Source: Hyphomicrobiales bacterium
GTDB lineage: Bacteria; Pseudomonadota; Alphaproteobacteria; Rhizobiales; Xanthobacteraceae
Length of the DNA: 64,000 nucleotides
Direction of reading: 5' to 3'
Assembly: GCA_009377695.1 (NCBI GenBank)
Contig: WHTP01000002.1
Location: forward strand, 37,473-101,472
This document shows positions 15,037 through 53,724 of the stretch, piece by piece (position 1 is the first letter of the stretch; each line of letters opens with the position of its first letter). The notes beneath the pieces are model-generated. The model saw nothing but the letters and a program-made list of their open reading frames with translations, had not been told where the DNA came from and searched no databases. The translations under genes and the position numbers were made by a program.

Positions 15037-15114
15037 CTCGTGTGGCGGTTCAGAAGTCCGCACTATTTTCGCGGCGAGTGCGAATTGCGGACTTCTGAAC
15101 CTAAGCCACACGAG
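15037..15114. repeat. Palindromic repeat, family E (CTCGTGTGGC GGTTCAGAAGTCCGCA-loop-TGCGGACTTCTGAACC..GCCACACGAG)
   Basis: Read directly. Confidence 0.85.
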
Positions 15115-15127
15115 ACTCAATGAGTTG

Positions 15128-15202
15128 CTAGTGTCCTTCGATTCCGAAGTTCGTATAAGAGGCCGCCGCGCAATGGTACGAACTTCGGAATCGAGACACT
15201 AG
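15128..15202. repeat. Palindromic repeat, family E (CTAGTGTCC..GATTCCGAAGTTCGTA-loop-TACGAACTTCGGAATC..CACTAG)
   Basis: Read directly. Confidence 0.85.
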
Positions 15203-15217
15203 GCGGAGGGGGCATCA

Positions 15218-39434: not shown

Positions 39435-39541
39435 GGCGTAAGCACCGCGATGAGACGCGGGCCGACTTGGTCCCACGCGATGATGAGTGCGAACGCGATG
39501 GCGATCGCGACGAGATCGGCGGCGACGGAGGAGGCGATCAT
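39431..39541 (-). CDS. Tiny membrane peptide (36 aa)
   Basis: MIASSVAADLVAIAIAFALIIAWDQVGPRLIAVLTP. ATGA overlaps at both ends. Confidence 0.4.
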   Translation of the reverse strand: MIASSVAADLVAIAIAFALIIAWDQVGPRLIAVLTP

Positions 39542-39801
39542 TCGGCGTGGCTCTCCCCACGCACGAATTGCTTTCCGTCGTTCGGCGGAAAGGTCACGCC
39601 CTGGCCGTACTTCCACTCGAAGCAGCAGCAGTCGCCGCCGTCGGTGATGATCACGCGCCGGATGATGCCGATCAGCGCTGCGGGGCGCGTTGTGTAGCTC
39701 TTGGCTGTCTCAACGGCCGTCTTGCCATCGACGAGCTGCGCGACGCACTCGTAGTCGCCGTTCGGGAAAAACTGGAACACGGAGAACTCGCCTGCGGCCA
39801 T
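39538..39801 (-). CDS. Hypothetical phage protein
   Basis: GGAGGA lies 6 nt before ATG 39801. The track uses GTG 39804. Confidence 0.55.
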   Translation of the reverse strand: MAAGEFSVFQFFPNGDYECVAQLVDGKTAVETAKSYTTRPAALIGIIRRVIITDGGDCCCFEWKYGQGVTFPPNDGKQFVRGESHAE

Positions 39802-39816
39802 CACCCATCCTCCGGT

Positions 39817-39948
39817 TCATCGAGCCGCTCGCGCCCGTACGGGCAGTCCGGGTCGATCGCGTTGATGTTGAGAACGGGCGCGCCGATGGTAGGGAAGCTC
39901 GAGCTCCGAGCCGTCATCGCAGTAGAGGGTGGGTGTCTTGGCTGACAT
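39817..39948 (-). CDS. First small ORF of the leftward early operon (frame uncertain)
   Basis: GCAGGAGA lies 4 nt before ATG 39948 (MSAKTPTLYCDDGSELELP...). Third-position GC favours a second frame for the distal half (...IGAPVLNINAIDPDCPYGRERLDEPEDG, stop 39801-39803). Confidence 0.3.
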   Translation of the reverse strand: MSAKTPTLYCDDGSELELPYHRRARSQHQRDRPGLPVRARAAR

Positions 39949-39976
39949 GATGTCTCCTGCTGGTTGCAGGAGGAAT

Positions 39977-40019
39977 GACTACATTACGTAGCCATACGTG
40001 TCAACTACGTAACGTAGCC
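39977..40019. promoter_or_regulatory. Two 17-bp operator-like inverted repeats: GACTAC-ATTAC-GTAGCC (39977-39993) and AACTAC-GTAAC-GTAGCC (40003-40019)
   Basis: Read directly. Located at the head of the leftward early operon. Confidence 0.65.
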
Positions 40020-40021
40020 AA

Positions 40022-40285
40022 TCAGTCGCGCACGTCCTCCGCGAGTGGACAGCGCGCGATAAGGGGTTGCAGCGTCCGGAGGATTTCGCTCACGCCAGCT
40101 TCGTGGTTGGCCTGCCGCAGGTAGTGCTCGCCGGCCCGCAGATTCCAGCAGGGGTCGTTCGATTCGGTCGCGGTACGGTGCCGTTCGCACTGGGCAAACG
40201 TGAGCGCAACGAAGGTCACGGTGACGAGATAGAGCCCCCAGCGGGTGGCGGTAAGCTTCTGTTTTACTTGAGCGATCTCGCTCAC
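40022..40285 (-). CDS. Small membrane protein co-transcribed with the repressor
   Basis: GTG 40285 overlaps the repressor stop (GTGA). One TM segment (WGLYLVTVTFVALTF), then a Cys-containing domain. Confidence 0.55.
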   Translation of the reverse strand: MSEIAQVKQKLTATRWGLYLVTVTFVALTFAQCERHRTATESNDPCWNLRAGEHYLRQANHEAGVSEILRTLQPLIARCPLAEDVRD

Positions 40286-40938
40286 CGCGGCTTCAGGCTC
40301 TTGACCCGGGCCGCCCATTCCACCTTCACGTTCTCGATAGGGTCGCCGAAGTCGCTGACAAGATTGAATAATCCATGCGCGCGGCTGCGCATGAGCTTCT
40401 TGACCAGGACCTGCCCGTTCTCGAGCCCGACCACGCAGAGCTTGCCGATCAGGTCGGGCGTCACCGGCCGGCGGACGTCATCGTAGAACACCAGCGCGCG
40501 GTCCCAGGTCGGGCCAAGGCTGTTGCCGCGAATCTCAACCGCAACGGTGCGCAGCGTGGCATCGGCGGGGGCGGGGGCCTCGTCGAGATCGCCTTGATTA
40601 ACCGCATAAAAATGGGCCTGAGCGCCGGCGCCAACATACCCTTTCACCCGCACCACTGGCGGCCGCGATTCGTCAGGGGCGTCCGGTTCAAAGGAGGACT
40701 CGTCGTCATGGTCGGGGCGAGGCCCGCGGCCGGTGAGCAGGTATTCCGGGGCGACCTTGAAACGCCGCGCGTAGATCCTCGCCTCGTCGGGCCCGTAGTC
40801 ACGGCCACCGGGATCCTCGGCGCGCTCATGGGCGCCGTAGGTGGACGCAGCCATGTCCAAGGCCCGCGCCGCCTGCCGCGCGGATTTGAAGAACTGTTCG
40901 CGCGCCAGGCGCAGCCGTTGTCCCCGGGTCGTAGTCAT
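40282..40938 (-). CDS. CI-like phage repressor (HTH plus LexA/S24 peptidase domain)
   Basis: N-terminal HTH (RLRLAREQFFKSARQAARALDMAASTYGAHE). C-terminal GNSLGP (Ser) and VKKL (Lys) dyad context. Confidence 0.85.
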   Translation of the reverse strand: MTTTRGQRLRLAREQFFKSARQAARALDMAASTYGAHERAEDPGGRDYGPDEARIYARRFKVAPEYLLTGRGPRPDHDDESSFEPDAPDESRPPVVRVKGYVGAGAQAHFYAVNQGDLDEAPAPADATLRTVAVEIRGNSLGPTWDRALVFYDDVRRPVTPDLIGKLCVVGLENGQVLVKKLMRSRAHGLFNLVSDFGDPIENVKVEWAARVKSLKPR

Positions 40939-40943
40939 GTCGG

Positions 40944-41014
40944 GGTTACGGTAGTGGACAACTGACTACGATGGGTGGTTGACCGCGATGGCTACGCAGT
41001 GTAGTCACGTAGTC
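40944..41014. promoter_or_regulatory. Divergent repressor/cro promoter region with the same operator motif
   Basis: Read directly: GGCTAC-GCAGT-GTAGTC (40990-41006); a weaker copy GACTAC-GATGG-GTGGTT (40965-40981); half-sites CGTAGTC at 40930 and 41008. Confidence 0.6.
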
Positions 41015-41017
41015 ATC

Positions 41018-41308
41018 ATGACCGAAGCAGCAGAACCCCGCACCGCGGCCGATGTGATGGCGAAGTGGCCGACCGACGCCGACTTCGCGCGCGACATCGG
41101 CGTGAAACCCACCCACGCGCAGACGATGAAGGTCCGCGATTCGATCCCGCCTGGATATTGGCCGGCGGTCGTGGTCGCGGCCGCCAAGCGCAATATCCAG
41201 GGCCTCACCCTTGAGGTGCTGGCGAAGATCGCCGCGCTCAAGCTGGGACGCGAGGCACCGCTCGCCCCCGAGGCCGGTCAAACCGACACCGCCAACGCTG
41301 ACAACTGA
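41018..41308 (+). CDS. Cro/YdaS-like small DNA-binding protein
   Basis: Divergent from the repressor. ...VMAKWPTDADFARDIGVKPTHAQTMKVRDSIPPGYW... Confidence 0.55.
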   Translation: MTEAAEPRTAADVMAKWPTDADFARDIGVKPTHAQTMKVRDSIPPGYWPAVVVAAAKRNIQGLTLEVLAKIAALKLGREAPLAPEAGQTDTANADN

Positions 41309-41328
41309 ACCACGAGGGGCGGGCGATG

Positions 41329-41637
41329 CTACGCCGGCAGTCGATTCATTGCGAAAGCCGGCTGCTGCAAGATGAGCCGCGGGCCGAAGGCGTCGATGAT
41401 CATTTCGACCATCGATCCAACCGCGTCGCGTCCCGCGACCATGTTGAGCACCACCTCGCGCTTGCGCTCGATGCGATGCTCGATCCGCGTCACACGCCAC
41501 GCCCAAAACGCAAGGTTGGCCTCGTTGCCGTAGATGTCGACGCGCGCCAAGCCACCAACCGGCATGACCAGCGCCGTCCCGTAGTCGACGTAATCGACTT
41601 GGTTGTCTCGAAAGAGATCTGCCGCATCCGCACGCAT
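41329..41637 (-). CDS. Hypothetical protein oriented against the rightward early operon
   Basis: GAGG lies 8 nt upstream of ATG 41637. High third-position GC. An AT-richer divergent region follows (41640-41786). Confidence 0.55.
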   Translation of the reverse strand: MRADAADLFRDNQVDYVDYGTALVMPVGGLARVDIYGNEANLAFWAWRVTRIEHRIERKREVVLNMVAGRDAVGSMVEMIIDAFGPRLILQQPAFAMNRLPA

Positions 41638-41786
41638 CCCACCGCCTCGTTTCTTGTTTTCTTGGAGGTATCAGCGTGCGCGAAACCAAATGTTGTTTCA
41701 AGCAGGATTCCACATGTCGACAGCGTGACGCAGGACGACGCGTCAATATGGTCAACAACGGTCGTTGATGGCGCGCGGGGCTTGGC

Positions 41787-42332
41787 ATGACCTGCCTCAC
41801 GTTCATGCAGCGCCGATCATTTGCCGCGCAGAAGGCGGCACGCACCCGCGCCAAGATGAAAAAAACGCGTGGTGAATTGCGCTGCGCGTGCGGCGCGCAG
41901 CGCCAACCAGGGCGCCATGAGTGCAAGGCGTGCCACGCCAAGTATGTGCGCGAGTGGCGCAAGACCCACAAGATGAGCGAGGCAGCGCGGGCGAGGGACG
42001 CCGCGCGTTCATACGCCAACGTCTACAAGCAGCGCGGCTTGATCGCTCCTCAACCGTGCACGCGCTGCGGTGCGCCCGGGACCGAAATGCACCATGCCGA
42101 CTATTCGCGTCCGTTGGACGTCGAGTGGCTGTGCCGGCCCTGTCATGTCGCAGAACACCACCCAGAAGCCACTGTCTGCACCAGTTGCGGCGGCCCGCTG
42201 GACACCAATCGCACGCGATGCCGTGCGTGTTGGGCGGGTTACATGCGCGCTTACCGTAAGCGTGACGTCGCACGTGGAACGTCCGAGGAAACATCGTTCG
42301 CGATCGTCGGCCAACTCTCGCAAGGCGCCTGA
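41787..42332 (+). CDS. Cys-rich zinc-finger/HNH-like phage protein
   Basis: CTRCGAPGTEMHHADYSRPLDVEWLCRPCHVAEHH, plus further CxxC pairs. Confidence 0.55.
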   Translation: MTCLTFMQRRSFAAQKAARTRAKMKKTRGELRCACGAQRQPGRHECKACHAKYVREWRKTHKMSEAARARDAARSYANVYKQRGLIAPQPCTRCGAPGTEMHHADYSRPLDVEWLCRPCHVAEHHPEATVCTSCGGPLDTNRTRCRACWAGYMRAYRKRDVARGTSEETSFAIVGQLSQGA

Positions 42333-42462
42333 CGATGCACACCCATCGCCGCACGCTTCCCCACCCACATGCACGTGCGGCGTTCACTGACGGCGTCGAG
42401 CAATCCGGATCGGCTACCTGCTCGACGCCGTCTTCTTCCTGGCGCGAGAAAGGGCGACGGCG

Positions 42463-42825
42463 ATGACCGACTTGGAGATTTTGGTTTCCGCGCGAGCGAT
42501 GATCGCGGACGTGAGCGATTGGTGGGACGGCCGGCATGTCGCCGGAGAAAGGCGCATCACCAATTGCGCGCTGTCGGCGCTCGTGGCACTCGCTCCAGCC
42601 GAGCGGTCGCTGAGTGCCGCGACAAAGCTCGCCAAGGCTATGGGGATCGCCAGCGCGTGCGACATCCCAACCTATAACGACACCCGCGGCCACAAGGCCG
42701 TCATCACCGCTTACGACCGCGCCATCGCGTTTGAGCGTGCCGAAGTAGCGGTGCGCGCCATCATGGCCGAAGCGTTGCAGGCTACGACGCTTGCCATCAC
42801 CGACGCGCCCGCGTTGGTCGACTGA
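42463..42825 (+). CDS. Hypothetical phage protein
   Basis: Track ORF followed by a strong terminator. Confidence 0.55.
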   Translation: MTDLEILVSARAMIADVSDWWDGRHVAGERRITNCALSALVALAPAERSLSAATKLAKAMGIASACDIPTYNDTRGHKAVITAYDRAIAFERAEVAVRAIMAEALQATTLAITDAPALVD

Positions 42826-42831
42826 GTTTCT

Positions 42832-42866
42832 CCCGCCGAGCGTTGTCGCGCCCGGCGGGTTTTTTT
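42832..42866 (+). terminator. Rho-independent terminator (CCCGCCG...CGGCGGG plus T7)
   Basis: Read directly. Confidence 0.8.
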
Positions 42867-42898
42867 GTGTGTGTGAGTAGCGTTCGAGTGAGGAAGAC

Positions 42899-43312
42899 AT
42901 GACGGCATTGACGGTAGCTAATGGTTCCGAAATCGCAATTTGTGCATCGGTCAGAACTGTCCTCGCGGACGGACAACCCCGTCCGCGAAAGTCGAACAGC
43001 GCCTTCTCGACAATGTGCATGGCGCTGTGGGGCGATACAGCGACAGGCGCGCTCTACGACCTCGTTGGCCAGCACCTCGGCTACAGCGATCCGGACACCG
43101 CGTTGCGTCAATGCCGGCGCTGGGCACGTGGCGAGACCGACCCGCCGTGGCTCGTCCTCTGGATGCTCATCCGATCACGCGAGGGCTATCGCGTGCTCCG
43201 CTACATCAACAAGCAAGGCGCGCCGCCAACCTATTGGACGGTCATCGGCGAGTGGCAGCAGAAGGCCGCGCTCGTCGACCGGCTTTGTAAGTGCGTGAGT
43301 GAACTCAACTAG
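42899..43312 (+). CDS. Hypothetical phage protein
   Basis: Track ORF. The start could be an internal ATG. Confidence 0.45.
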   Translation: MTALTVANGSEIAICASVRTVLADGQPRPRKSNSAFSTMCMALWGDTATGALYDLVGQHLGYSDPDTALRQCRRWARGETDPPWLVLWMLIRSREGYRVLRYINKQGAPPTYWTVIGEWQQKAALVDRLCKCVSELN

Positions 43313-43325
43313 CCAGGGAGAGACC

Positions 43326-43970
43326 ATGGCGAAGAAGGCAAAGACCGCGAAGCCCGCGAAACCCGCCAAGGCTGCAAAGCCGAAGGCGCGGAATGAGAAG
43401 CCGGCGAAGGCTGCAAAGCCCAAGCCGACGGCCGAGCAAATGAGCGACGATCAGCGGCGCGTGCTGCTGTTCAACCACAAGCGCAAGGTCAAGCCGCTGA
43501 TCGCGGCGAAGAAGCTTGCCGATGCCAACCTTCAAAAGCAGTACGAGCTCGCCAAGAAGGAAGGCATCACCAAGAAGCAGATCGAGACCGCCATCCTCCT
43601 CGAAACCGAGGAAGGTCACGAGAAGCTCAAGGCCCAGGTTCAGCACATCCTCGACATCGACCGCTGGATGGGCAAGGAGCTCGGCACGCAGCTCGAGTTA
43701 TTCACCAAAGACTCGGCTGCCGAACGCGACTTCGATGCCGGCAAGCGCGCCGCGCTCGACGACGAGATCCGCAAGCCGCCCGAGCATCTGTCGCAGGCAG
43801 GCCAACAGCGTTGGCTTGCCGGCTATGCCGAGGGCATCGAGCAGATCAACAAGACCCGGGAGACCGGGTTCAAGCCGCTTGGTGAGGTTGCGTTAGGCGT
43901 AATGGCAGACGCGGCGGGCGCCGAAGCGGTTGATAGTCTCGCCCAGCCTGACCACCAGGCGGCCGCGTGA
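43326..43970 (+). CDS. Phage protein with a Lys/Ala/Pro-rich histone-H1-like N-terminus
   Basis: GGGAGAG precedes ATG 43326. Translation: MAKKAKTAKPAKPAKAAKPKARNEKPAKAAKPKP... Confidence 0.6.
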   Translation: MAKKAKTAKPAKPAKAAKPKARNEKPAKAAKPKPTAEQMSDDQRRVLLFNHKRKVKPLIAAKKLADANLQKQYELAKKEGITKKQIETAILLETEEGHEKLKAQVQHILDIDRWMGKELGTQLELFTKDSAAERDFDAGKRAALDDEIRKPPEHLSQAGQQRWLAGYAEGIEQINKTRETGFKPLGEVALGVMADAAGAEAVDSLAQPDHQAAA

Positions 43971-43973
43971 GCC

Positions 43974-44516
43974 ATGGCGGACCGCCCCTACATCATCGCG
44001 CTTGATCCCGCCACCAACACCGGGATTTGCGAAGGGCAGGTCGGGCGAGCCCCGACGCTGCACGCGCAATATTTCGGCGGCGCGGGCGATCACGATGCTC
44101 TGTACGGGGCGGCCACCGCTTTCTTTGCGACGTTTCTACTCACTCGAAAGCCCGACCTGATCGCGATCGAAGCGCCGATCTATGACGGCAATGGCCGCAC
44201 CAGCCTGGACGCGATCGCCATCAGCCGCGGGCTCTACGCGATTTTCACCGGCATAGCGCGCGCCAAGGGCATCCAGACGATCCGCGCGCCGATCGGCACA
44301 TGGCGAAAGTTCTTCCTCGGCCGCGGCAACCTCAATGGCAAAGAGGCGAAGTCACAGTCCGTGAAGCTGTGCGCGCAGCTTGGTTGGAAAGCACCGACAC
44401 ACGACGCGGCGGAAGCCGCTGGGATCTGGATGTGGGCCGGATCGCAGATCGCCCCGCGCTGCGCGCAGCGTGTCGAACCTCTCTTCGTAGCAAATGGAGT
44501 GTGCAGCAATGGGTAG
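43974..44516 (+). CDS. RuvC-like Holliday junction resolvase
   Basis: IIALDPATNTG...LIAIEAP...HDAAEAAGIW: the catalytic acidic residue pattern. Confidence 0.75.
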   Translation: MADRPYIIALDPATNTGICEGQVGRAPTLHAQYFGGAGDHDALYGAATAFFATFLLTRKPDLIAIEAPIYDGNGRTSLDAIAISRGLYAIFTGIARAKGIQTIRAPIGTWRKFFLGRGNLNGKEAKSQSVKLCAQLGWKAPTHDAAEAAGIWMWAGSQIAPRCAQRVEPLFVANGVCSNG

Positions 44517-44763
44517 GAACCGCAACTACAAGAACGCGAAGGACATCCGCGAGCAGCCGAACTTCAACGCCACGAAGATCACGGACGGCATCGCCGTTCG
44601 GGCGCAATCAGAGGCGTTCGCGCGTGCGCTCCTGGCAACGCCGGAAGGCAACAAGGCACGCCGCGACTTCCTCAAGCGCGGCAACCAGCCCGGCAACGCC
44701 TATCCGCGCTACCGCTCGCCGGCGTCGGTCACTCCGTACATCCGATCGAACGCGGACTGGTGA
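44494..44763 (+). CDS. Hypothetical phage protein (start 44494 or 44509)
   Basis: Track ORF overlapping the RuvC-like 3' end. Confidence 0.45.
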   Translation: MECAAMGRNRNYKNAKDIREQPNFNATKITDGIAVRAQSEAFARALLATPEGNKARRDFLKRGNQPGNAYPRYRSPASVTPYIRSNADW

Positions 44764-44960
44764 CGGCAATGCGCGGGGAATCCTGGGCATCTGTGAAGAT
44801 CGACATGCCGCCATCGCTGGTCGACCGCATCGAGGAGGCAGCGCGAAAACGCGGCGTCAGGCGCGCGCCCCTCATACGCGAAATGCTCGAGAAGGCGCTC
44901 GACAGTGTCGAAGCGCCGCCGATTGCAACGGAGGCAATAGGTGAAACTGAGCGAGCCTGA
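44760..44960 (+). CDS. Ribbon-helix-helix (CopG/Arc-like) protein
   Basis: ASVKIDMPPSLVDRIEEAARKRGVRRAPLIREMLEKAL. Confidence 0.65.
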   Translation: MTAMRGESWASVKIDMPPSLVDRIEEAARKRGVRRAPLIREMLEKALDSVEAPPIATEAIGETERA

Positions 44961-45005
44961 TTTCACCGGGCAGCTGCGCCGGCCCGTGATCGTAGGAGCG
45001 CAGCC

Positions 45006-45914
45006 ATGAGCGAGCGCGGGGTTTTCGGCGTCGACCGAGGGATCTTCGAACACCATTGGCTGGCGGGCGAGCCGTACACGCGCATCCAGGCATGGCAGTG
45101 GCTTTGCGCCGAGGCCGCATGGAAGCCGCGGCGCTCCCTGGTCGCCGGCATGATGGTCGAGCTCGAACGCGCGCAACTCGCGCATTCGCTCAGTCACATG
45201 GCGAAGACCTGGCAGTGGTCGATCAAGCGGGTGCGCACCTTCATCCGCCGGCTCAAGCAAGACGACATGGTCGTCATCGGGCACAGAAAGGGCACAGCAA
45301 AGGGCACAGGGCTGACCCTTCTAACCATCTGTAATTACGACGAATATAACTTCGGCACATTGCCGAAGGGCACAGCAAAGGGCACGCCCGGGGCACAGCA
45401 GGGGCACAAACCAGAAGAAGATAGATTGATAGATGGGAGGGATACGGGCACGCAGCGCGCGAAAGCGTTCGAAGAAGCCCGCAACCCGAGCAAGTGCACG
45501 GTCTCGGAAGACGCCCACGACCTAGCGCGCGAATTCCTCATCGCGATCGGCGTCGAGCCCGAGCATCCTGAACTCTACGGCATGTCCGGAGTGCCTTACG
45601 CCGCGCAGATGTGGTTGTCGCGCGGCTACGAGCGCGCGCTGATCCTTGCGACCGCGGCTGAGAAGGCCGCGCGCTACGGACCGAACAAGCCGATCGGCTT
45701 CTACACGAAGTGCTTCGAGACAGCGCACCAAAGCCGGCCCGCACCGGGCCAGCGCAACTTCCCGCTTCTCCAAACCATCGAGGGAAACAATGGCCCAAGA
45801 GCCGATGCGAGCGACTTCATCCACCCCGCTGCCCGAAATCTCAGCTTCGCAGCCCTTGGTGCCAGCCTCAGGCGACAGGCTGCGGCGCGGCGTCGCGACG
45901 ATCCAGCAGCGTAG
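45006..45914 (+). CDS. Replication initiator (lambda O / DnaD-like winged-helix N-terminus) containing internal iterons
   Basis: ...AWQWLCAEAAWKPR...ELERAQLAHSLSHMAKTWQWSIKRVRTFIRRLKQDDMVV... The central GTAKGT peptide repeats are encoded by the iterons. Confidence 0.65.
   Translation: MSERGVFGVDRGIFEHHWLAGEPYTRIQAWQWLCAEAAWKPRRSLVAGMMVELERAQLAHSLSHMAKTWQWSIKRVRTFIRRLKQDDMVVIGHRKGTAKGTGLTLLTICNYDEYNFGTLPKGTAKGTPGAQQGHKPEEDRLIDGRDTGTQRAKAFEEARNPSKCTVSEDAHDLAREFLIAIGVEPEHPELYGMSGVPYAAQMWLSRGYERALILATAAEKAARYGPNKPIGFYTKCFETAHQSRPAPGQRNFPLLQTIEGNNGPRADASDFIHPAARNLSFAALGASLRRQAAARRRDDPAA
45279..45409. repeat. Origin-like iteron array
   Basis: GGGCACAG at 45279, 45290, 45302, 45368 and 45391. Variants GGGCACG at 45380 and GGGCACAA at 45402. 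Spacing is 11-12 bp. The two blocks are split by an AT-rich spacer (45325-45355). Confidence 0.75.
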
Positions 45915-46482
45915 CGGCCTGCCGCCGAGCTTCGACGCCGACGCTGACCAGATCGTGCCGAACCGCTGCTACAGCGCATGGATCCCGAAGACGGGACCGC
46001 GGCCGTTGCGCAAGCGTCTCAGCTACTACGAGCGCACGACCGTCGAGCAGCGCGTCGAGGCCCTGCGCCGCGCGGTAGAGCCATTCGGCCCTGGTGACAC
46101 AGACCTCTGCGCCGGCGCGATCTCGACGATGTTCGGGAAGTACCCGCAGCTTCGCCAGCAGGGCGCCGACGTCCTCACGATGGTCAACGAAATGCTCGGC
46201 ACGCTTCGCGACATGCCGCCGTGGGCCATCGTCGACGGGTGCGAGCTCGTCGGCGACGGCAGGGCCGGACTCAAGCCGAGCTTTCCGCCGACCAATGCCG
46301 AGGTGCGAGCGGTCGTCGAGCGCGTGCTGCAGCCCTATCGAGTGCGGCTTGCCGCTGCCGAGGCGCTGTTGCTCGCGCCCTTGGAAGGCGATGAGGGCCG
46401 GGCGCCTCCACGAGACAAGCCGAACATCGATCCTCTCGCCGCACAGCTTGGGCGTGATCCGCGGAGTACGAGCCGCGGGTAG
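45790..46482 (+). CDS. Hypothetical protein downstream of the initiator (possible replication partner)
   Basis: GAGG precedes ATG 45790. Overlaps the initiator ORF by 125 nt. Confidence 0.5.
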   Translation: MAQEPMRATSSTPLPEISASQPLVPASGDRLRRGVATIQQRSGLPPSFDADADQIVPNRCYSAWIPKTGPRPLRKRLSYYERTTVEQRVEALRRAVEPFGPGDTDLCAGAISTMFGKYPQLRQQGADVLTMVNEMLGTLRDMPPWAIVDGCELVGDGRAGLKPSFPPTNAEVRAVVERVLQPYRVRLAAAEALLLAPLEGDEGRAPPRDKPNIDPLAAQLGRDPRSTSRG

Positions 46483-46815
46483 GCGCCTCCCCGCGGGGGA
46501 GGTGCAGGTCGGGGGACCTATCATCGTGATAGGCTTAAGCCGCATTGCTTGGACTTCCAGCGGCCATGTGACCCCGAGACACTGGTGACCGTTCGGGCCT
46601 CCGGGACAAGGGGGCCCGTGCATCCGAACTTACGGCACCGCCTCAGGACGATGACGGGGCCGTCTTTCATTGGCCCGTCAGGAACATTGTACCGAGCTAC
46701 CCGTTTGGGTCATGGCAAGTCCAGGATCCCCCCGTCCCCCCCGACTAGCCTGGAGTTGCTAGGGCCCCGCGTGTTGGCGTTACATGCGGGGTCCTTCCGT
46801 TTTATGGAGGGGGAA
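46483..46815 (+). ncRNA. Candidate structured noncoding region (long leader or sRNA); no convincing ORF
   Basis: Several GC-rich hairpins read directly: GCGCCTCCCCGCGGGGGAGGTGC (46483-46505), CCTATCA-TCG-TGATAGG (46517-46533), GACGGGGCC...GGCCCGTC (46652-46679), CTAGC...GCTAG (46745-46762), GGCCCCGC...GCGGGGTCC (46763-46793). Confidence 0.35.
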
Positions 46816-46908
46816 ATGAGCTCAGGTACACTTTGGACTATTGGAGCGCTGGTCTTCACCATCGCCCTCTGGGCCTTCATTCTGTATGCATGCCACCGTC
46901 GCAGGTAG
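46816..46908 (+). CDS. 30-aa hydrophobic peptide MSSGTLWTIGALVFTIALWAFILYACHRRR
   Basis: GGAGG lies 5 nt before ATG 46816. One TM helix and a basic C-terminus. Confidence 0.45.
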   Translation: MSSGTLWTIGALVFTIALWAFILYACHRRR

Positions 46909-47004
46909 GGCGGGCTCGACCCAATACTCTGGCCCGCGCTCCATGTCCCAAAAATTGCTAATCCGTGCTAAGGGGCGATTCGTTAGAGCCGCGAGGAGGC
47001 AACC

Positions 47005-47304
47005 ATGATCAATCCCACCGTTGGGCGCATCGTCTATTACTGGCCGGGCGGCCGCGCCCATACCGAGGATCCCGGGCGGCAGCCGCTCGCGGCGACGATC
47101 GCCCACGTCCACAACGAGCGCATGATCAACATCGGCTATTTACAGATCGATGGCGTGGCGAGGGACGCCTCCTGCGTGCCGCTCGTCCAGGACGGCGACG
47201 AGCGCCCTGACGCCGCTTTCTGCGAGTGGATGCCCTATCAGAAGGGCCAAGCGGCCAAGACCGAGCAGCTCGAGGCAAAGGTCGAGACCCAGCCCGCCGG
47301 CTGA
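47005..47304 (+). CDS. Hypothetical phage protein
   Basis: GAGGAGG precedes ATG 47005. Confidence 0.6.
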   Translation: MINPTVGRIVYYWPGGRAHTEDPGRQPLAATIAHVHNERMINIGYLQIDGVARDASCVPLVQDGDERPDAAFCEWMPYQKGQAAKTEQLEAKVETQPAG

Positions 47305-47388
47305 GGCTCTGGCGCGACCGCCGCCGCCGTGGCATCTATCCGCCCGGGAGACTGACAAAGGACCATCGTTGGCCGGGGAACGCCAGGG

Positions 47389-48153
47389 ATGGGTCGCACG
47401 AAGGGGCGGCCGCCGTCACGGGCGCCGCGCACCGCATCGGGCCGGCCGATTGCCAAGGCCAACGGTGCTTACGTCCTATTTCATCGATTACGGAAGGCCG
47501 CGCTGGCGATCGGCACCGATCCGCGCATCCTGACCGAACTCACGCTTTTAGGCCTGCGGGGCGAACTGACCGACCGCCAGGTGTCGGCCGGGCTCAAGGT
47601 CGCCGAGATCTACCGGACATTCGAGCGATGGCACGGCAAGCGCAGAGCGACTGCCTCGCCCGACTTCGAGCGGACCTATGGGCGCGGCGGGGAGCGGGGC
47701 GACGACAGTGACGGGCGCGTCCTAAAGGCTGAGGAAGACTGGAAAAACCTCCAGGACATCATCGACGCGGACATCAGCGAGCGCCAGGGGCGCGAATTGA
47801 TTGAGAGCGTGTGTGTCGAGGACCGTCGGCCGCTCGACCAGGAGCTCGACGCCCTGCGCTCCTATCTCGATGTCATCGCGCGCGAGATCGTACGGGACAA
47901 GCGAGACCGCAAACGCAAGCGGGTGCAGCTACCGAGCATAGCGGTGACGGCGAAGGCGCCGCCACGCCCGGCGCCGAAGCGCGCCGACCTCGACAAGGCC
48001 GCCTGGATCGCCTGCGCGCGGCAGATGCGGCCCGACATCTCGCTAGAGCAGGCGGAAGCGGCCTGGCGCGACTATCTCGACCGGCGGGCGTTCGAGTTTG
48101 CCAAGGCCGACCGCGGCGCGTTCCGCCGCGACAAGGAGAGGAAGCGGGCATGA
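47389..48153 (+). CDS. Hypothetical phage protein (basic; possible regulator)
   Basis: Track ORF, coupled to the next two genes. Confidence 0.55.
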   Translation: MGRTKGRPPSRAPRTASGRPIAKANGAYVLFHRLRKAALAIGTDPRILTELTLLGLRGELTDRQVSAGLKVAEIYRTFERWHGKRRATASPDFERTYGRGGERGDDSDGRVLKAEEDWKNLQDIIDADISERQGRELIESVCVEDRRPLDQELDALRSYLDVIAREIVRDKRDRKRKRVQLPSIAVTAKAPPRPAPKRADLDKAAWIACARQMRPDISLEQAEAAWRDYLDRRAFEFAKADRGAFRRDKERKRA

Positions 48154-48455
48154 TCCGCAAGCACACCGAGGCGCTGCACAACTTCGTCGCGATGCTCGGC
48201 CCCAAGGCCCGCGTCTCCGATCCGGACAAGCTCCTAACTGGGCTTGCGGGCATGGGCATTTCGTTCGACGGAAGCGACGAGCCTATCGTCGGCTCCCTGC
48301 CGTCGGCCACCGCTGCGGATCTGCGGGACAACACGGTCTCGCTCAGGCTTAATCACGCGCGCATCCATGACTATGAGCGCCGTGCTTCATGGCCACTCCA
48401 CGATGTCGACGCAGAGCTGCGCGCCATCGGGTTCTGTGTCGCGAGGCTCAAATGA
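48150..48455 (+). CDS. Hypothetical phage protein
   Basis: ATGA overlap at 48150-48153. Confidence 0.5.
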   Translation: MIRKHTEALHNFVAMLGPKARVSDPDKLLTGLAGMGISFDGSDEPIVGSLPSATAADLRDNTVSLRLNHARIHDYERRASWPLHDVDAELRAIGFCVARLK

Positions 48456-48769
48456 TGATGAAGTCCATCACCACCAGCCGCCGGCGCTTCTTCGGGCTGA
48501 TGCCCGGCGGGGCGCTCGCTGTGAAGCAGGCCGCCGAGCAGACCATGCTCAAGCTCGCGAGTGGCGCACACGCGCCGCGCACGATCCTGCGCGATACGTT
48601 ACGGGAGACCGAGCATCCGAACACGACGGCGGGCCAGACGACCGAGATCATCCCCGGCTTCAACTGGGGCAAGCTGCGCGACGAGGCCATCACCAAGGCG
48701 TTGAACACACCTGCGCGCCCGCTGATCTCAGCATCAAGATCGCGACACGCGCTGGTTGCGCCCGCTTGA
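48452..48769 (+). CDS. Hypothetical protein with a twin-arginine-like N-terminus (TSRRRFFGLMPGGALAV)
   Basis: ATGA overlap at 48452-48455. Confidence 0.45.
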   Translation: MMMKSITTSRRRFFGLMPGGALAVKQAAEQTMLKLASGAHAPRTILRDTLRETEHPNTTAGQTTEIIPGFNWGKLRDEAITKALNTPARPLISASRSRHALVAPA

Positions 48770-48796
48770 CGCTGCGCCGTGGTGGCGCAATCATTG

Positions 48797-48858
48797 CTGG
48801 CGCCCGGCAAACTTCGACGGAGTGTTGTCGCGCTAGTTGTCGCACTTGCCGACCGGCA
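48797..48858 (+). pseudogene. C-terminal fragment of an XRE-family regulator (...PGKLRRSVVALVVALADRQG stop)
   Basis: Direct repeat of 49933-49990. Resembles the conserved C-terminal tail of alphaproteobacterial XRE regulators (from memory). Confidence 0.4.
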
Positions 48859-48961
48859 AGGTTAGGCGCGCGGCGCCTCAGTTTGAAATTTGGCGGCTTG
48901 ACGCGGGTGTCGCGCCTTCGGCTCCTATATGCTTAGCGGAAAGCAGGAGTAGCGGCGGCGA

Positions 48962-49690
48962 TCAGTACCGCGCCGCGACCGGTGCCGACCACGGGCCAAA
49001 GCGATAGTTGATACCGAACTTCACGACGTGGATCTCTTGATCGATGTCGAGCGGAAATGTGAAGTTGTTGTCTGGGAATGTGAGGTCCACGCTGTCGCTG
49101 CCGAAGTTCAAATATTGATACTCGCCCTTGGCCGACCAGTTGCCTCCCAGCGCCACCTCGATGCCGCCGCCGACAGTCCAGCCGGTGCGGGTAGTGTCAC
49201 CACTGGCGACGCGAGACGGATCAGATATGCGGGCGAAGTCGAATTTGTCATGTGCGAACGCGAAGCCGCCCTTGGCGTAGACGAGCACGCGGTCAAAGGC
49301 ATAGCCGAGGCGGCCAGTGACGGTGCCGAGCCACTCGACTTTGCTTGAGAACTTTTGGCCAAAGATGTCTGTATGATCGCCGGTCAGGTCTGCCCAGCTG
49401 ATATCAGCCTCAAGGCCGAGGACCCAATTGCTCGGGCTCTGCCAATTGAAGCCGATCTGACCACCGGCGATAAAGCCGTTCGTATCATGCGACCCCAACG
49501 GATCGCCATTATCAAACCAATCCTTGGTGCCGAATCCACCACCGACGTGCGCGCCGATGTAGAAGCCGGTCCAATTATAGACCATCGGAGGAGGCGGCGG
49601 CGGAGCCTTGTAAACCGGCATGTCGGCAGCCAATGCAGGACCGGCGATCAAGGCGCCAGTGGCGACGCCAGCCAGCAGGATTTTCCTCAT
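48962..49690 (-). CDS. Omp25/Omp31/RopB-like beta-barrel outer membrane protein
   Basis: Signal peptide MRKILLAGVATGALIAGPALA, then YNWTGFYIGAHVGGGFG...GINYRF-type strands. Confidence 0.85.
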   Translation of the reverse strand: MRKILLAGVATGALIAGPALAADMPVYKAPPPPPPMVYNWTGFYIGAHVGGGFGTKDWFDNGDPLGSHDTNGFIAGGQIGFNWQSPSNWVLGLEADISWADLTGDHTDIFGQKFSSKVEWLGTVTGRLGYAFDRVLVYAKGGFAFAHDKFDFARISDPSRVASGDTTRTGWTVGGGIEVALGGNWSAKGEYQYLNFGSDSVDLTFPDNNFTFPLDIDQEIHVVKFGINYRFGPWSAPVAARY

Positions 49691-49899
49691 GATAGCCCCC
49701 GAGTCTAAAAGCTGTAGGGCATTAATAGCACACGCAACCGGCAATCGTTGTTGCAGCGGGACCACAAGTCACAATTAATCGCAAGTGCGTTAGCGTCGTT
49801 TGGCGGTAGCTACTTGCCGCTCGCGCGGCCCCCTGCACGGTTGCCGGGATCAAGACCGAGGTCCTGTCCTAATTCCAGCCCCCGTTGTCGCAGTTCCCG

Positions 49900-50186
49900 G
49901 AACCGCTCCTAAGCGCCTTCCAGAAATTGCCGACCGGCAAACTCCGGCGACGTGTTGTCGCGCTCGTTGAGGAGCTTGCCGACCCTACGATCAGTTTCGC
50001 CACATCGGGCATGTCGACCCCGACATCGCCGTGCATCGCTCGTTCTCGCTGGCGGCGAAGCTGTGCTACCAGCGCCAGCGCATGGTGCAGGCCGAGATCC
50101 GCGAGGCGGTGCAGGAGAAGACGACATGGCAGAAGCTCCGAAGCTGGCGGGAAGGGGTCTTGAGCGTCCTCGACAAGCTCGGCTGA
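49900..50186 (+). pseudogene. Second XRE-regulator C-terminal fragment, followed by a frame-shifted start-less ORF
   Basis: ...LLSAFQKLPTGKLRRRVVALVEELADP, then in another frame ...YDQFRHIGHVDPDIAVHRSFSLAAKLCYQRQRMVQAEIREAVQEK...VLDKLG stop. No usable start codon. Confidence 0.4.
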
Positions 50187-50556
50187 CTTGACGCGCTGGC
50201 CTGCTTCGGCTACGCGATAAATCCACACTTGCCCATGAGTGTGACGCCCCTTCGCGAGCCCTGCGCCAGCACAGCGTGGGGCTTTTGCTTTATGCCCTGA
50301 CGCCTTGACCTCTGTGCACCAGCGCCTTGCCTTCGGGCCGCTGCTGGAGAAAGCCATGTCTCGGTGCCGCGACCGCGCCCCCTCGGTCGATCGGCTAGGG
50401 GCACCAGATCACGCAGTGTTTCCGTTAGGAAACACTCGTAAGTCACTAAAAAGTAAGAGAATACTTGCGTAAGCGATTTGCGCCGGCGATTCGCCTGCCG
50501 CGCGGCGCGCACCTCTGCGGTCCCGGTCGAAGGCATGGGTCTCCCCCCGGTCCTTT

Positions 50557-50830
50557 GTCTATCCATCCCACGGCCGGGACCGCGACCACCATCATCCAGG
50601 GAGACCCGTCACCCCAATCGCACTCGCGGGCTTCATCCACATGGTCGGGCTGCTCCCACCTGACCAACTCAACGTGGCGGGATACGCACTAACCGCCTAC
50701 AAGCGCGCAAGCGAGGACAATGACCTCAGCATCGCTTGGAACTTCAGCCAGATCGTCGGTGGCCGCCGCGCGACGATCACGTTCATCGGCGCGTGGGATA
50801 CGGTCGCGTCCGTGCTGGTGCCGCGGCGCG
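50557..50830 (+). pseudogene. Fragment of a DUF2235 (Tle1-like alpha/beta hydrolase) gene
   Basis: ...IALAGFIHMVGLL...TITFIGAWDTVASV matches the DUF2235 core. The GxSxG region and both termini are missing. Confidence 0.5.
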
Positions 50831-51123
50831 ATCGTATCGTTCCGACGCTGCTGCAGCACGGTGCTAACGTGCCGAGACCTTACGGTCGTCCGGGTTCGAG
50901 CCCCGGTCTCTCCGCCACTCACTTGCCGAGGAGAGCTCGCTCGTCCTCTTCGATTATCCGTAGCAGGTTATCGGCGCGCTCCTTCGACTCGGAGATGTAT
51001 CGTTGGGTAACATCCTTCCGCTCACCGCTCGGGGTGATTTCGAAAAACGTTTAAGTCATGGAAGCCGAGGTGGCCTTCGCGGTCAGCCGAAGGCCTGGAA
51101 GGAAACTCAGTTGTGGGGGGTCG

Positions 51124-51660
51124 CTATGGGCAGTGCGCCTCATCTTCCTTCTCGGTTAAATATTTGTGGCACAGGAGGCCGTCGACTCTGATCGCGGTGA
51201 TCTTCACATACCGCCACGACAGTTTTCCGCCTGCACCTGGGGTGTCAGGATCATTCCCGCACTTCAATGTTATTTCCACGGGAAGCCTCCTCTCTTCGAT
51301 AACGCCCTGCAATGGAAGCACGGCGTTGTCGAGCTGGTCCACGCCGCTAGGTGCAAGCCTGACTTGGTCAAAATCCAAAACGGCACGGGCCCAGCTAAGC
51401 TCACAGTTAACGGTTACGGGCGACGTCGTTTGCGTTTCGTCCTGATCGAGGCCCACTTTGGCAAATACCGCGTAGCGTCCTGGGGGAACATGTAGAGATA
51501 GAGGAGTTAAGGAATTCACATGGCCAGCTCTCTTCGTTAACGAAAAGACATCGCTCGCAGCGTGGCTGGATCGCATTGGGGAAAGGAGGGCTAGTAGGCA
51601 AGCCAAACTGATGGCTCCGGCCGAACGGATATATCGCGCTGTCGCCTTGCTGGTGATCAT
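51124..51660 (-). CDS. Secreted hypothetical protein
   Basis: GGAAGGGGG precedes ATG 51660. Signal peptide MITSKATARYIRSAGAISLACLLALLSPMRSSHA. Lies in a lower-GC stretch. Confidence 0.55.
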   Translation of the reverse strand: MITSKATARYIRSAGAISLACLLALLSPMRSSHAASDVFSLTKRAGHVNSLTPLSLHVPPGRYAVFAKVGLDQDETQTTSPVTVNCELSWARAVLDFDQVRLAPSGVDQLDNAVLPLQGVIEERRLPVEITLKCGNDPDTPGAGGKLSWRYVKITAIRVDGLLCHKYLTEKEDEAHCP

Positions 51661-51879
51661 AGCCCCCCCTTCCGGGAATGGCATCTCGCGGATCCTGCTC
51701 CTGCCCCCTCCGAGCAACGCCGCTCCGGCATATTTCGCAAACGTCATGTTTTGCTCCCGAGATTGTGTGCGCGGACTTTCGATCGCGGCCGGAATCGTTC
51801 AGGCGGTCTCGATACGTCTACAGGATTAAGTGCTGAATCGTATTGATGAATCGGAAATGGTATCGACCAAGTTTAGGCA

Positions 51880-52075
51880 AATACGACTGATTTACTTGCG
51901 GGGCAGGCGCGCCGCTATGGCAGGCCGCCGGCTATCTGGCATGTCGGAAAAGACATTGCGCGACACGTATGGCCACCATCACCCGGATTACATGGCCGCC
52001 GGCGGTGGCGGCGATCAGCGGCAAGCCAGTGCGCGGCGGACAAGTCGTTTCTATGATTGGCCGGCGCGAAGTGTC
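51880..52075 (+). pseudogene. C-terminal fragment of a tyrosine integrase with a frameshift
   Basis: ...SGMSEKTLRDTYGHHHPDYMAA (integrase C-terminal signature), continuing in the +1 frame as AVAAISGKPVRGGQ... There is no upstream integrase body. Confidence 0.55.
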
Positions 52076-52112
52076 GTGACACAGGTGCTATGTAGCTTAG
52101 TCGGGCCATGGA

Positions 52113-52328
52113 ATGGTTGCACCGGATCGCCGCTCGGCCGCCATCGTCTATCTCTGGGGCGGCGAGCACGAGCAGCGCATGCGCCGTCCGCACGAGGGAC
52201 CGCAGCGTCGCGCTGAGAAGGCGAGAGTGATCCGGCTGCCGAGCCTGCGTAAGTTCTCGCGCGACGAGGTGCGCGTGATGGCGCGCCGCGTCTTCCGCGC
52301 CGAGCGCGCCGCGATGCGCACGCGCTGA
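52113..52328 (+). CDS. Hypothetical small basic protein
   Basis: Track ORF. Weak support only. Confidence 0.3.
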   Translation: MVAPDRRSAAIVYLWGGEHEQRMRRPHEGPQRRAEKARVIRLPSLRKFSRDEVRVMARRVFRAERAAMRTR

Positions 52329-52417
52329 TCCGGCGCGTATCCTTGTTTCATTCGCATGAATGTGCGTAGACGTGAACGTCGCGCGACTCACGCGCGTCGT
52401 AACAACGGAGACGCCAC

Positions 52418-52528
52418 ATGGCGACAAAGGCCAAGAAGGCGAAGCGCACGTCCGGCAAGTCTGGATCAAGCGCGCGCCGCAAGCCCGCAGCGAAGCGCCG
52501 CGCAGGACCGCGCGCTCGCCGGGCGTAA
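52418..52528 (+). CDS. 36-aa highly basic peptide MATKAKKAKRTSGKSGSSARRKPAAKRRAGPRARRA
   Basis: GGAGA lies 7 nt before ATG 52418. A terminator follows. Confidence 0.4.
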   Translation: MATKAKKAKRTSGKSGSSARRKPAAKRRAGPRARRA

Positions 52529-52565
52529 CGCCATCCCACGATTCCTCTTCTGACCTGGACGACTT

Positions 52566-52590
52566 AGCCCCGCTTCGGCGGGGCTTTTTC
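52566..52590 (+). terminator. Rho-independent terminator AGCCCCGC-TTCG-GCGGGGCT-TTTTC
   Basis: Read directly. Confidence 0.8.
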
Positions 52591-52788
52591 ATGTGGGATA
52601 CCGATGCGGCGACATCCGAGTGGCCGACCGATCCGTCGGCGCATTGTGAAGCCACTGCCGATTACGCGCGAACCGCCGCGCGAACCACTCACGCCTGGCC
52701 TGCGCAAGCCAGAGGACGCTGGCGAGTGCATCGGTTTCCACGCTGATTTCATCCGGGACCTCGATGATGTTGAGAGCGACGAATAGCC

Positions 52789-52971
52789 GTGGCTAGGCCC
52801 ACGCTCTCCGATCTTCCGGCACGGCTGCATGATCTGGCCGACCGCGCGCGGCGCCTGCCACCACCGTCCCGCACCGACCCGGAAGCCTTCCACATCGCCC
52901 GCGACGAGCTCGGCGCCGACCTCGAGATCCTGGCCGAGAGCGTCGCGCAACTCGTTCCCAGGGCACGTTGA
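52789..52971 (+). CDS. Hypothetical small phage protein
   Basis: High third-position GC. ATGA overlap with the next gene. Confidence 0.5.
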   Translation: MARPTLSDLPARLHDLADRARRLPPPSRTDPEAFHIARDELGADLEILAESVAQLVPRAR

Positions 52972-53171
52972 TGACCCATACCAACTACGTGATCGCGCTG
53001 GCATCGGGTGCTGGCTACTACCTTGGCGAGGGTTGCTGGACCACCAACCCAGCCAATGCGCTGCGGTTTCGTGACGAAGATCACGCCCGCGCATATGCCG
53101 ACCGCCGACTAGCGGATGGATGCTTCTCCGTTGAACGCGAGCACACGCGACCGAATGTCTCCACTCGCTAA
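52968..53171 (+). CDS. Hypothetical small phage protein
   Basis: Track ORF, coupled to its neighbours. Confidence 0.5.
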   Translation: MMTHTNYVIALASGAGYYLGEGCWTTNPANALRFRDEDHARAYADRRLADGCFSVEREHTRPNVSTR

Positions 53172-53724
53172 CGCCAAACGCGAAGCCTTTGCCCGCGCGA
53201 TCGTCGAGGGCAAGTCGGGCCGGGAAGCCTATCGCTCCGCCGGCTACAAGCCGAAGAACGACGCCACCGCCGACGCCTGCGCCTCGCGGCTCCTGGCAGA
53301 GCCGGCCGTTGCGGCCCGTGTCACCGTGCTCAAGGAGGCGGCCGCCGACGATAGCGTGATGTCGGCGCGCGAGGTGCTCGAGGAACTTTCAAAGCTCGGG
53401 CGATCGTCGATCAAGAACTGCATCGTCAACGGCGACGACGCCGGCGAGGTTATTGCGTCGCTTAGCGACATGCCCGACGAGGTTGCTGCGACCATCCAGG
53501 AGATGACGGTCGAGACCTACACGGAGGGTCGCGGCGACAACGCGCGCGGGGTGAAGCGCGTGCGGCTCAAGCTGCACTCGAAAACCTCCGCGCTCGATCT
53601 CCTCGGCAAGCACTACAAGCTGTTCACCGAGAAGCACGAGCACGACCTGTCCGACCCGCTGAAACAGTTGCTCGCCGACATCAGCGGCACGGCGTTCCGG
53701 CCCAGCGATGGCGACGGCAAGTGA
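53155..53724 (+). CDS. Terminase small subunit
   Basis: MSPLANAKREAFARAIVEGKSGREAYRSAGYKPKNDATADACASRLL... is the typical Terminase_2-type N-terminus. Confidence 0.8.
   Translation: MSPLANAKREAFARAIVEGKSGREAYRSAGYKPKNDATADACASRLLAEPAVAARVTVLKEAAADDSVMSAREVLEELSKLGRSSIKNCIVNGDDAGEVIASLSDMPDEVAATIQEMTVETYTEGRGDNARGVKRVRLKLHSKTSALDLLGKHYKLFTEKHEHDLSDPLKQLLADISGTAFRPSDGDGK

Follow-up and report, generated by a model that had tools for sequence, protein, structure and literature searches.

In a lambdoid-type prophage, the DNA that separates the replication genes from the conserved gene after them (positions 46483–47004) contains 333 nucleotides (nt) of apparently non-coding sequence followed by an open reading frame (ORF) for a 30-amino-acid (aa) membrane peptide. 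All positions refer to the window, the whole 64-kb stretch that was analyzed, which consists of ~30 kb of host DNA followed by the prophage; the guanine plus cytosine (GC) content of the genome is 64%. Upstream of the region are the genes for a DnaD-like initiator and a 207-aa protein, and downstream is the gene for a 99-aa protein. A sequence-only reading had proposed that the region encodes a structured RNA controlling a toxic peptide, in the manner of a type I toxin–antitoxin system. Our analysis instead points to a putative accessory cassette that combines a terminator with a candidate small-protein gene. The features of the region are as follows.

46483–46505, + strand: H1, a GC-rich hairpin with a 10-bp stem right after the upstream stop codon and no U-tract (−19.6 kcal/mol; −16.1 on the − strand)
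46517–46533: palindrome CCTATCATCGTGATAGG with TATCA-N3-TGATA half-sites (−7.5 kcal/mol)
46534–46730, + strand: central non-coding spacer with two local hairpins, its stability at chance level
46535–46903: putative cassette of ~370 nt (spacer, terminator and whole peptide ORF), absent from the closest relative
46594–46618: hairpin with a 9-bp stem and the 7-nt loop GGGACAA (−19.6 kcal/mol)
46652–46680: hairpin (−15.8 kcal/mol)
46713–46686, − strand: sigma-70-like promoter match ATGACC-16-TACAAT, the single one on the opposite strand
46728–46742, + strand: C-tracts CCCCCCGUCCCCCCC, between spacer and terminator
46761–46805, + strand: intrinsic-terminator-like element, a 14-bp stem (46761–46795) followed by UCCGUUUUAU
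46806–46813, + strand: Shine–Dalgarno (SD) sequence GGAGGGGG, with GGAGG at 46806–46810, 5 nt ahead of the ATG
46816–46908, + strand: peptide ORF MSSGTLWTIGALVFTIALWAFILYACHRRR, 30 aa with one transmembrane (TM) helix and a basic HRRR C-terminal tail; stop codon TAG at 46906–46908
46904–46942, + strand: hairpin over the stop codon of the ORF (−21.5 kcal/mol, z = −2.4), not followed by a U-tract
46929–47004, + strand: region ahead of the 99-aa gene, shared with the closest relative and containing the ribosome-binding site (RBS) GAGGAGG

The stretch from 46483 to 46815 carries no coding signal. Its GC content at codon positions 1, 2 and 3 is 0.62, 0.61 and 0.68, compared with ~0.70, 0.50 and 0.83 in the flanking genes. 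A 119-aa ORF on the + strand matches nothing in Pfam or PHROGs and has no homologue in protein searches, and ORFs of 49 and 56 aa on the − strand match nothing in NCBIfam, PADLOC or Pfam. The sequence-only reading had seen no credible ORF over ~330 nt, and both the codon-position GC content and the lack of family matches bear this out.

That reading had also described several GC-rich hairpins, the first of them 1 nt past the upstream stop, and all of the hairpins that it listed are found. Its description of a structured region holds for the whole but not for the middle. The 333 nt together are more stable than dinucleotide shuffles (z = −2.8) and, once GC content is adjusted for, are among the most stable 0.7% of 333-nt windows in the 64-kb sequence, but the central 197 nt (46534–46730) are at chance level, with z = −0.81 against shuffles and z = −0.22 against other windows. 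For the segment 46720–46960, z = −1.3. Because the central 197 nt fold like shuffled sequence, the excess stability derives from three elements: H1, the palindrome and the 14-bp hairpin. On the + strand of the 64 kb, ~34 uninterrupted stems reach 10 bp or more, and two of them fall within the 333 nt, where 0.18 would be expected (P ∼0.014). At 64% GC, a row of GC-rich hairpins is no evidence of structured RNA, and only the terminal elements beat chance. The ~225 nt from the palindrome to the terminator are best treated as spacer, perhaps a 3′ untranslated region (3′-UTR) or a decayed remnant, and we see no sign of a dedicated fold in them.

Searches for known RNAs and motifs gave little. No Rfam 15 family matches anywhere in the window at the gathering thresholds, and in 46300–47100 a search at E up to 10 returned only noise (E ≥0.58, bit scores far under gathering). 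The covariance search that the earlier reading had suggested as a check thus yields no family, antitoxin RNAs included, and ARAGORN finds no tRNA or tmRNA. H1 and the 46594–46618 hairpin can form G–U pairs on the + strand only. As read by eye, the loop of the latter contains GACAA, as in P22 boxB, but on a 9-bp stem with a 7-nt loop. We saw no boxA-like sequence of a nut- or put-type site by eye and identified no N-like protein, and a by-eye look for sigma-54 promoters and boxA/boxB motifs turned up nothing convincing.

The strongest element of the region is the hairpin at 46761–46795, whose U-rich tail the sequence-only reading had overlooked. Its 14-bp stem, with 9 G–C pairs, closes a 7-nt loop and precedes UCCGUUUUAT; no uninterrupted + strand stem in the 64-kb window is longer. 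The hairpin has a predicted stability of −26.6 kcal/mol (z = −5.4) on the + strand and −17.7 kcal/mol on the − strand, a difference of 8.9 kcal/mol that arises because two G–U pairs become C–A mismatches on the − strand. The element has the properties of an intrinsic terminator: a GC-rich stem–loop, a U-rich tract and a structure favored on the transcribed strand. It is the sole + strand terminator-like site in 45800–47600 and has the longest stem among such sites found in 39500–55000. Terminator-like sites on the + strand of the right operon are found at 42841–42858 (just after the first gene), 46761, 50256 and 52566. Judged from its sequence, the element at 46761–46805 is probably an intrinsic terminator, at which transcription would be expected to stop.

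Immediately beyond this element, the sequence contains what had been reported there: GGAGG ahead of ATG 46816 and a 30-aa ORF with a TM helix and an HRRR tail, followed by a GC-rich hairpin that we place at 46904–46942. We scanned both strands of the window (128 kb) for GGAGG at −14 to −4 of an ATG that opens an ORF of 18–60 aa with a hydrophobic 17-residue window. The peptide ORF was the only case found, where 0.02 would be expected in first-order random sequence, and the small membrane-peptide ORF is credible on statistical grounds. The maximum 17-residue Kyte–Doolittle mean of the peptide is 2.27. Pairing of its SD with the anti-SD (−9.8 kcal/mol) is the strongest among the 30 genes compared. 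The SD has an unpaired probability of 0.26, which ranks 11/29 when set against 29 other window genes (median 0.34), and the AUG is 0.98 unpaired. In the predicted structure, the SD core is paired at ~0.74, chiefly with the adjacent UCCUUCC (46792–46798) or with the C-tracts, which are predicted to pair with G-runs, the SD among them. The GC content of the ORF is 0.55 compared with 0.64–0.69 in its neighbors. The only promoter-like match ahead of it, TTGCTA-18-TTACAT at 46756–46785, is weak (8/12) and lies within the terminator hairpin.

The peptide is an orphan in the collections that we searched. It had no homologue in a word-indexed search of 5.8 billion clusters, a complete HMMER scan of 1.84 billion representatives brought up no protein at E ≤0.001 and nothing matched it in translated phage and plasmid records. 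Pfam at E up to 10 gave only sub-threshold matches to generic TM anchors, and NCBIfam and PADLOC gave none.

Comparison with a related phage indicates that the terminator and the peptide ORF belong to one insertion or deletion. The one close relative is a phage from Joint Genome Institute (JGI) metagenome 3300053671, represented by two contigs that are syntenic with the prophage: L202, with 74% DNA identity over window positions 47004–48530, and L205, with 84% identity over 8.6 kb of structural genes. L202 begins 7 nt ahead of the position of the upstream stop codon. Local alignments match window 46477–46534 to L202 8–64 and window 46929–47021 to L202 114–201, leaving 49 nt between the aligned flanks in L202 and 394 nt in the window. 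A further resemblance, between GGTAGGGCGGGCTCGAC in the window and GGGGAGGCGCTCGAC in L202, suggests that the right boundary lies near 46903, at the stop of the peptide, although this position is approximate (46903–46928). On these alignments, the ~370 nt are an indel that distinguishes the two related phages: the window has them and the one relative lacks them between the same conserved flanks, as expected of an accessory cassette. In L202, the interval is of ordinary stability (z = −1.0) and contains nothing that resembles a terminator. According to the sequence-only reading, a lack of conservation of the ORF and its region in related phages would count against the proposed module, and both are lacking in the only relative found. 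We also considered a miniature inverted-repeat or repetitive extragenic palindromic element; the window has no further copies of the cassette, and the cassette has no terminal inverted repeats.

The left flank of the indel is shared by the two phages. H1 is only partly conserved in L202. The palindrome, which occurs once in the window, is kept in L202 (48–64) as GTATCATCATGATAGG, its flanks also (GGGAC.TATCATC.TGATAGG), and may be a binding site for a protein or regulator just past the replication genes. In the Logan assembly of SRR10173838, where the locus is found at 100% identity, contigs stop at 46667 and restart at 46834; the break (46668–46833) spans the C-tracts and the terminator. For the relative, the break in the JGI assembly falls at the position of H1.

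More distant comparisons did not recover the region. The 207-aa protein has one distant homologue (42% identity), encoded on a 1.3-kb contig, L002, that carries the same gene pair (DnaD-like and 207-aa) and no long non-coding stretch. Immediately behind the 207-aa homologue on L002, at 984–1064, is a GTG-started hydrophobic ORF of 26 codons, VRWVPARAFAIGLLAGAMVHVVMRLL, with a GC content at third codon positions (GC3) of 1.0; its stop overlaps the next ATG (TGATG). A small TM peptide thus comes after the gene in this second phage as well, although it has no sequence similarity to the window peptide. The 99-aa protein has 673 homologues; we compared about 200 loci that encode it, drawn from genomes, metagenomes and viral contigs, using blastn, tblastn and tblastx, and found no similarity to the non-coding stretch or the peptide in any of them. 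A small TM ORF lies upstream of the 99-aa gene in 2/133 loci, and the gene is usually packed tightly against its upstream neighbor. There is no DNA homologue of 46400–47050 in the phage and plasmid collections. Exact-pattern scans of viral contigs with the palindrome, the terminator, the C-tracts and the 46594–46618 hairpin gave, among the matches listed, only a low-complexity chance match (L204), and scans with the DnaD-like and 254-aa proteins returned nothing. When ten window proteins were looked up in clusters at 90% identity, only the large terminase was not a singleton, and its cluster led to L205.

The peptide ORF is in frame with the 207-aa gene, the two being separated by one TAG (46480–46482) and 111 sense codons. 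The frame remains open for 142 codons past the TAG, which has a probability of ~2% by chance, and the aligned triplet in L202 is CAG. The shared frame is probably a coincidence. An extension of the 207-aa gene into the peptide by read-through is contradicted by the codon-position GC content and by where the L002 homologue ends.

The surrounding prophage has the following genes.

30014–31186, − strand: integrase gene
40282–40938, − strand: cI-like repressor gene
43974–44516, + strand: RuvC-like resolvase gene, early operon
44760–44960, + strand: ribbon–helix–helix protein gene, early operon
45006–45914, + strand: DnaD-like initiator gene, early operon
45859–46482, + strand: 207-aa gene, overlapping the 3′ end of the DnaD-like gene; stop codon TAG at 46480–46482
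47005–47304: 99-aa gene (phrog_2293), after the studied region and followed by the 254-aa gene
48962–49765: outer-membrane beta-barrel gene, reverse-oriented, with a poorly coding stretch after it
53116 and 53708: starts of the small and large terminase genes

The DnaD-like gene carries at least seven GGGCACA(G) iterons spaced 11–12 nt apart, in clusters at 45279–45309 and 45368–45408 that adjoin a lower-GC stretch within the gene. The replication origin therefore appears to be of the iteron type and to lie within the DnaD-like gene, as it does within lambda O, and we rejected the idea that the region at 46483–46815 is an origin. The 207-aa protein received no family assignment in profile searches and is probably a replication partner of the DnaD-like initiator.

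Downstream, the 99-aa protein is widespread and occurs in many gene neighborhoods. Its 673 homologues come from Alpha-, Beta- and Gammaproteobacteria and even from contigs assigned to Planctomycetes, the nearest being those of Afipia, Pseudorhodoplanes, Rhodopseudomonas, Bradyrhizobium and Variibacter. A confident structural model (predicted local distance difference test score of 92.6) consists of an SH3/Tudor-like barrel with a C-terminal helix, and the family has an invariant W-x-P-x-Q motif; the model gave no informative structural match. Pfam, PHROGs, NCBIfam and PADLOC provide no lysis-related or other functional annotation for the 99-aa, 254-aa and 126-aa proteins. A direct repeat, TGCTAA-N4-TGCTAA (46956–46971), lies 35–50 nt before the 99-aa gene; its L202 version is TGCTCT-N4-TGCTAA, and it may be a promoter or activator site.

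Farther from the region, 48200–53100 (L202 1700–5345) has few ORFs with normal codon bias. The beta-barrel gene at 48962–49765 is on the opposite strand in L202, and a fragment at 50641–51054 resembles, as judged by eye, the remnant of an alpha/beta-hydrolase. These features hint at rearrangement and decay in the 48.2–53.1 kb interval, which separates the early from the late modules. At 39976–40020 (− strand), an inverted repeat with a 19-bp stem, TGGCTACGTTACGTAG...CTACGTAATGTAGTCA, lies in the short space that separates a small − strand gene from the next − strand ORF, ~260 nt below the cI-like repressor gene. In host intergenic DNA at 15036–15205, two adjoining near-perfect hairpins of ~75–80 nt each have stems of ~26 bp; no other 333-nt window of the 64 kb is as structured as the one that holds them (z = −7.75 against shuffles), and Rfam gives no match there.

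Taken as a description of this locus, ‘structured RNA’ is an overstatement: the strongest element resembles an intrinsic terminator, and the peptide gene is plausible but orphan. The interpretation that we favor, to which we give roughly an even chance, is that the region is a lineage-specific accessory cassette of ~370 nt consisting of a terminator and an orphan small membrane-protein gene. The cassette would separate the replication module from the conserved gene that comes next in the prophage, and here the strong + strand Rho-independent terminator at 46761–46805 would end or gate transcription of the early-right/replication operon, and the downstream genes would depend on read-through, antitermination or a weak local promoter. 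The consensus RBS ten nt past the terminator would serve a 30-codon gene whose product is predicted to cross the inner membrane once and to have its HRRR tail in the cytoplasm. This gene is probably co-transcribed with the 99-aa gene and would be expressed by read-through or from the TTGCTA-18-TTACAT sequence in the hairpin. The peptide is presumably translated. Its role could be that of a membrane-acting accessory in exclusion, abortive infection or growth arrest, which is a guess; a TM helix with a basic end in the cytoplasm would suit accessory functions at the membrane, including toxic ones.

Several observations weigh against this interpretation. There is a single relative, from which conservation of the ORF is not measurable, and with only two sequences a gain here is not separable from a loss in L202. 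The criteria of the small-ORF scan were chosen after the ORF had been seen, so the real odds are weaker than the scan implies, though still suggestive. The GC3 of the ORF is 0.65, well under the ~0.83 of host-adapted genes; a recently acquired gene would fit this value, but so would a chance ORF. The U-tract of the terminator is interrupted (UCCGUUUUAU). Finally, the terminator precedes the gene and no clear one follows it, unlike the classic promoter–gene–terminator layout of a moron.

Type I toxins are short peptides with a single TM helix and a basic tail. At 30 aa, the peptide lies within this range and satisfies the usual limits of size and hydrophobicity (<~60 aa, a TM helix). It also has an accessory, prophage-borne position, for which hokW-sokW in the lambdoid Sakai prophage 5 offers a precedent (PMC8621323). 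A type I module would make it a membrane toxin checked by RNA, either an antisense transcript from the promoter-like match at 46713–46686 upstream of the ORF or a same-strand C-rich RNA whose 3′ end is at the terminator and which base-pairs with the SD, to which the C-tracts at 46728–46742 are complementary. We nevertheless regard such a module as distinctly unlikely. The peptide matches no protein and no toxin family (Hok/Gef, Ldr, TisB, Ibs, ShoB, Fst, TxpA, AapA, ZorO and others), and no antitoxin RNA of Rfam is present. The − strand promoter match is not above chance, 3 matches of this type being found over 15.5 kb where 2.6 are expected; no terminator is seen on the − strand, and the ORF and its RBS would lie outside any transcript from this site. 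Consensus scans, which are a weak test, revealed no paired promoter and terminator for a cis-encoded antisense RNA, and no inverted repeat of at least 18 nt that involves the translation start region was found nearby. Control by RNA structure, which the sequence-only reading had offered as the other possibility, fares no better: the accessibility of the SD is ordinary and the central leader folds at chance level (z = −0.8). The terminator 10 nt before the RBS would stop any long, folded leader transcript short of the ORF and therefore argues against such an mRNA as the main toxin transcript. What survives of the proposed toxin is a credible ORF in an accessory, lineage-specific position in a prophage; the toxin–antitoxin interpretation itself is unsupported by each test run. 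A toxin–antitoxin-like or abortive-infection module belonging to no family, in which a same-strand C-rich RNA (46535–46805) would pair with the toxin RBS as its antidote and toxin synthesis would require read-through of the terminator on induction or superinfection, seems to us very improbable.

The terminator could instead mark the end of the functional product. In this case, that product would be a small RNA (sRNA), either independent or derived from the 3′-UTR of the replication operon, with a single-stranded C-rich seed directed against G-rich RBSs, and the peptide ORF would be a separate gene or incidental. The seeds of 3′-end-derived sRNAs are often located just 5′ of the terminator hairpin, as is the C-rich tract here, and C-rich anti-SD seeds occur in alphaproteobacterial sRNAs; the strength of the terminator and the + strand G–U asymmetry of three hairpins point the same way. 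An sRNA is still unlikely, given that an Rfam search relaxed to E = 10 finds no match, that no + strand promoter match precedes the terminator, that the putative RNA body is no more stable than shuffles and that its absence from the only relative removes any support from conservation or covariation. To the idea that the region is nothing specific, i.e. decayed or recombinational filler between the modules of a partly degraded prophage with a chance ORF and ordinary GC-rich hairpins, we likewise assign a low probability. The ordinary stability of the central 197 nt, the lack of homologues in any collection searched, the weak codon bias of the ORF and a reading frame that merely continues that of the 207-aa gene, open for 142 codons past the TAG, would all be expected of filler, and the 48.2–53.1 kb interval shows a similarly poor coding signal and rearrangement relative to L202. 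Filler would not be expected to combine a consensus SD at ideal spacing with an ATG and a clean TM helix (0.02 expected per window), to contain the longest uninterrupted + strand stem of the 64 kb in a 14-bp hairpin that has a U-rich tail and favors the transcribed strand, or to hold two uninterrupted stems of at least 10 bp in 333 nt (0.18 expected, P ∼0.014). The order of gene, palindrome, ~230-nt leader, strong terminator and small membrane protein also resembles the PR′-qut-tR′ arrangement for late-gene control in lambda. By this analogy, the 207-aa protein, which has no family assignment, would be a Q-like antiterminator, the palindrome its site, the ~250-nt RNA a 6S-like terminated leader and the peptide a first, holin-like late gene. 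We find this highly improbable. The 207-aa gene overlaps the iteron-bearing DnaD-like initiator gene and is conserved with it, on L002 as well, a position that befits a replication partner; there is no promoter match near the palindrome, and L202 keeps the palindrome without the terminator. Moreover, the terminase genes are 6 kb away, beyond a reverse-oriented gene and two more terminator-like sites, and the neighboring proteins that were tested have no lysis-related annotation.

The finding thus amounts to an ordinary-looking terminator and an unproven small gene, both of known kinds, and raises no new question. If the peptide is made, it would be a new orphan small membrane protein among the poorly charted accessory genes of prophages in the Nitrobacteraceae/Xanthobacteraceae, the group to which the nearest relatives of the 99-aa gene belong and in which small proteins are rarely annotated; its ORF is missing from the protein collections searched. 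The presence/absence polymorphism provides a natural control for the function of the cassette.

Among known systems, lambda offers the closest parallel for the terminator. Its early-operon terminators, such as tR1 and tR2, are passed by antitermination; tR2 and the nin-region terminators are intrinsic and are located downstream of O and P. As in lambda, several terminator-like sites are distributed along the early operon here, and the element at 46761–46805 resembles tR2 in being a + strand GC-rich hairpin with a U-rich tail just past the replication module, in the early-right direction. It is unrelated to tR2 in sequence, and we identified no N- or Q-like antiterminator and no nut site; the closest relative, L202, is without the terminator. 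The type I systems Hok/Sok, Ldr/Rdl, TisB/IstR-1, ZorO/OrzO and hokW-sokW share with this locus a short, positively charged single-TM prophage peptide and a long untranslated stretch, whereas the locus matches no family, has no recognizable antitoxin RNA gene, sequesters its RBS no more than usual and is not conserved.

Morons, as described in HK97 and HK022, are extra genes inserted between genes that are conserved in related phages. The cassette agrees with this description in its presence or absence between conserved flanks, in its small, lower-GC gene with a strong RBS and in playing no part in the core phage modules. It departs from it in that the terminator precedes the gene, the only promoter-like match before the ORF is weak and the hairpin after it has no U-tract. 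KdpF, MgtS and PmrR are ~30-aa inner-membrane proteins that are not toxic and have regulatory or accessory roles. They have no sequence relation to the peptide and are encoded in host operons rather than in a phage, but they are of the same size class and topology.

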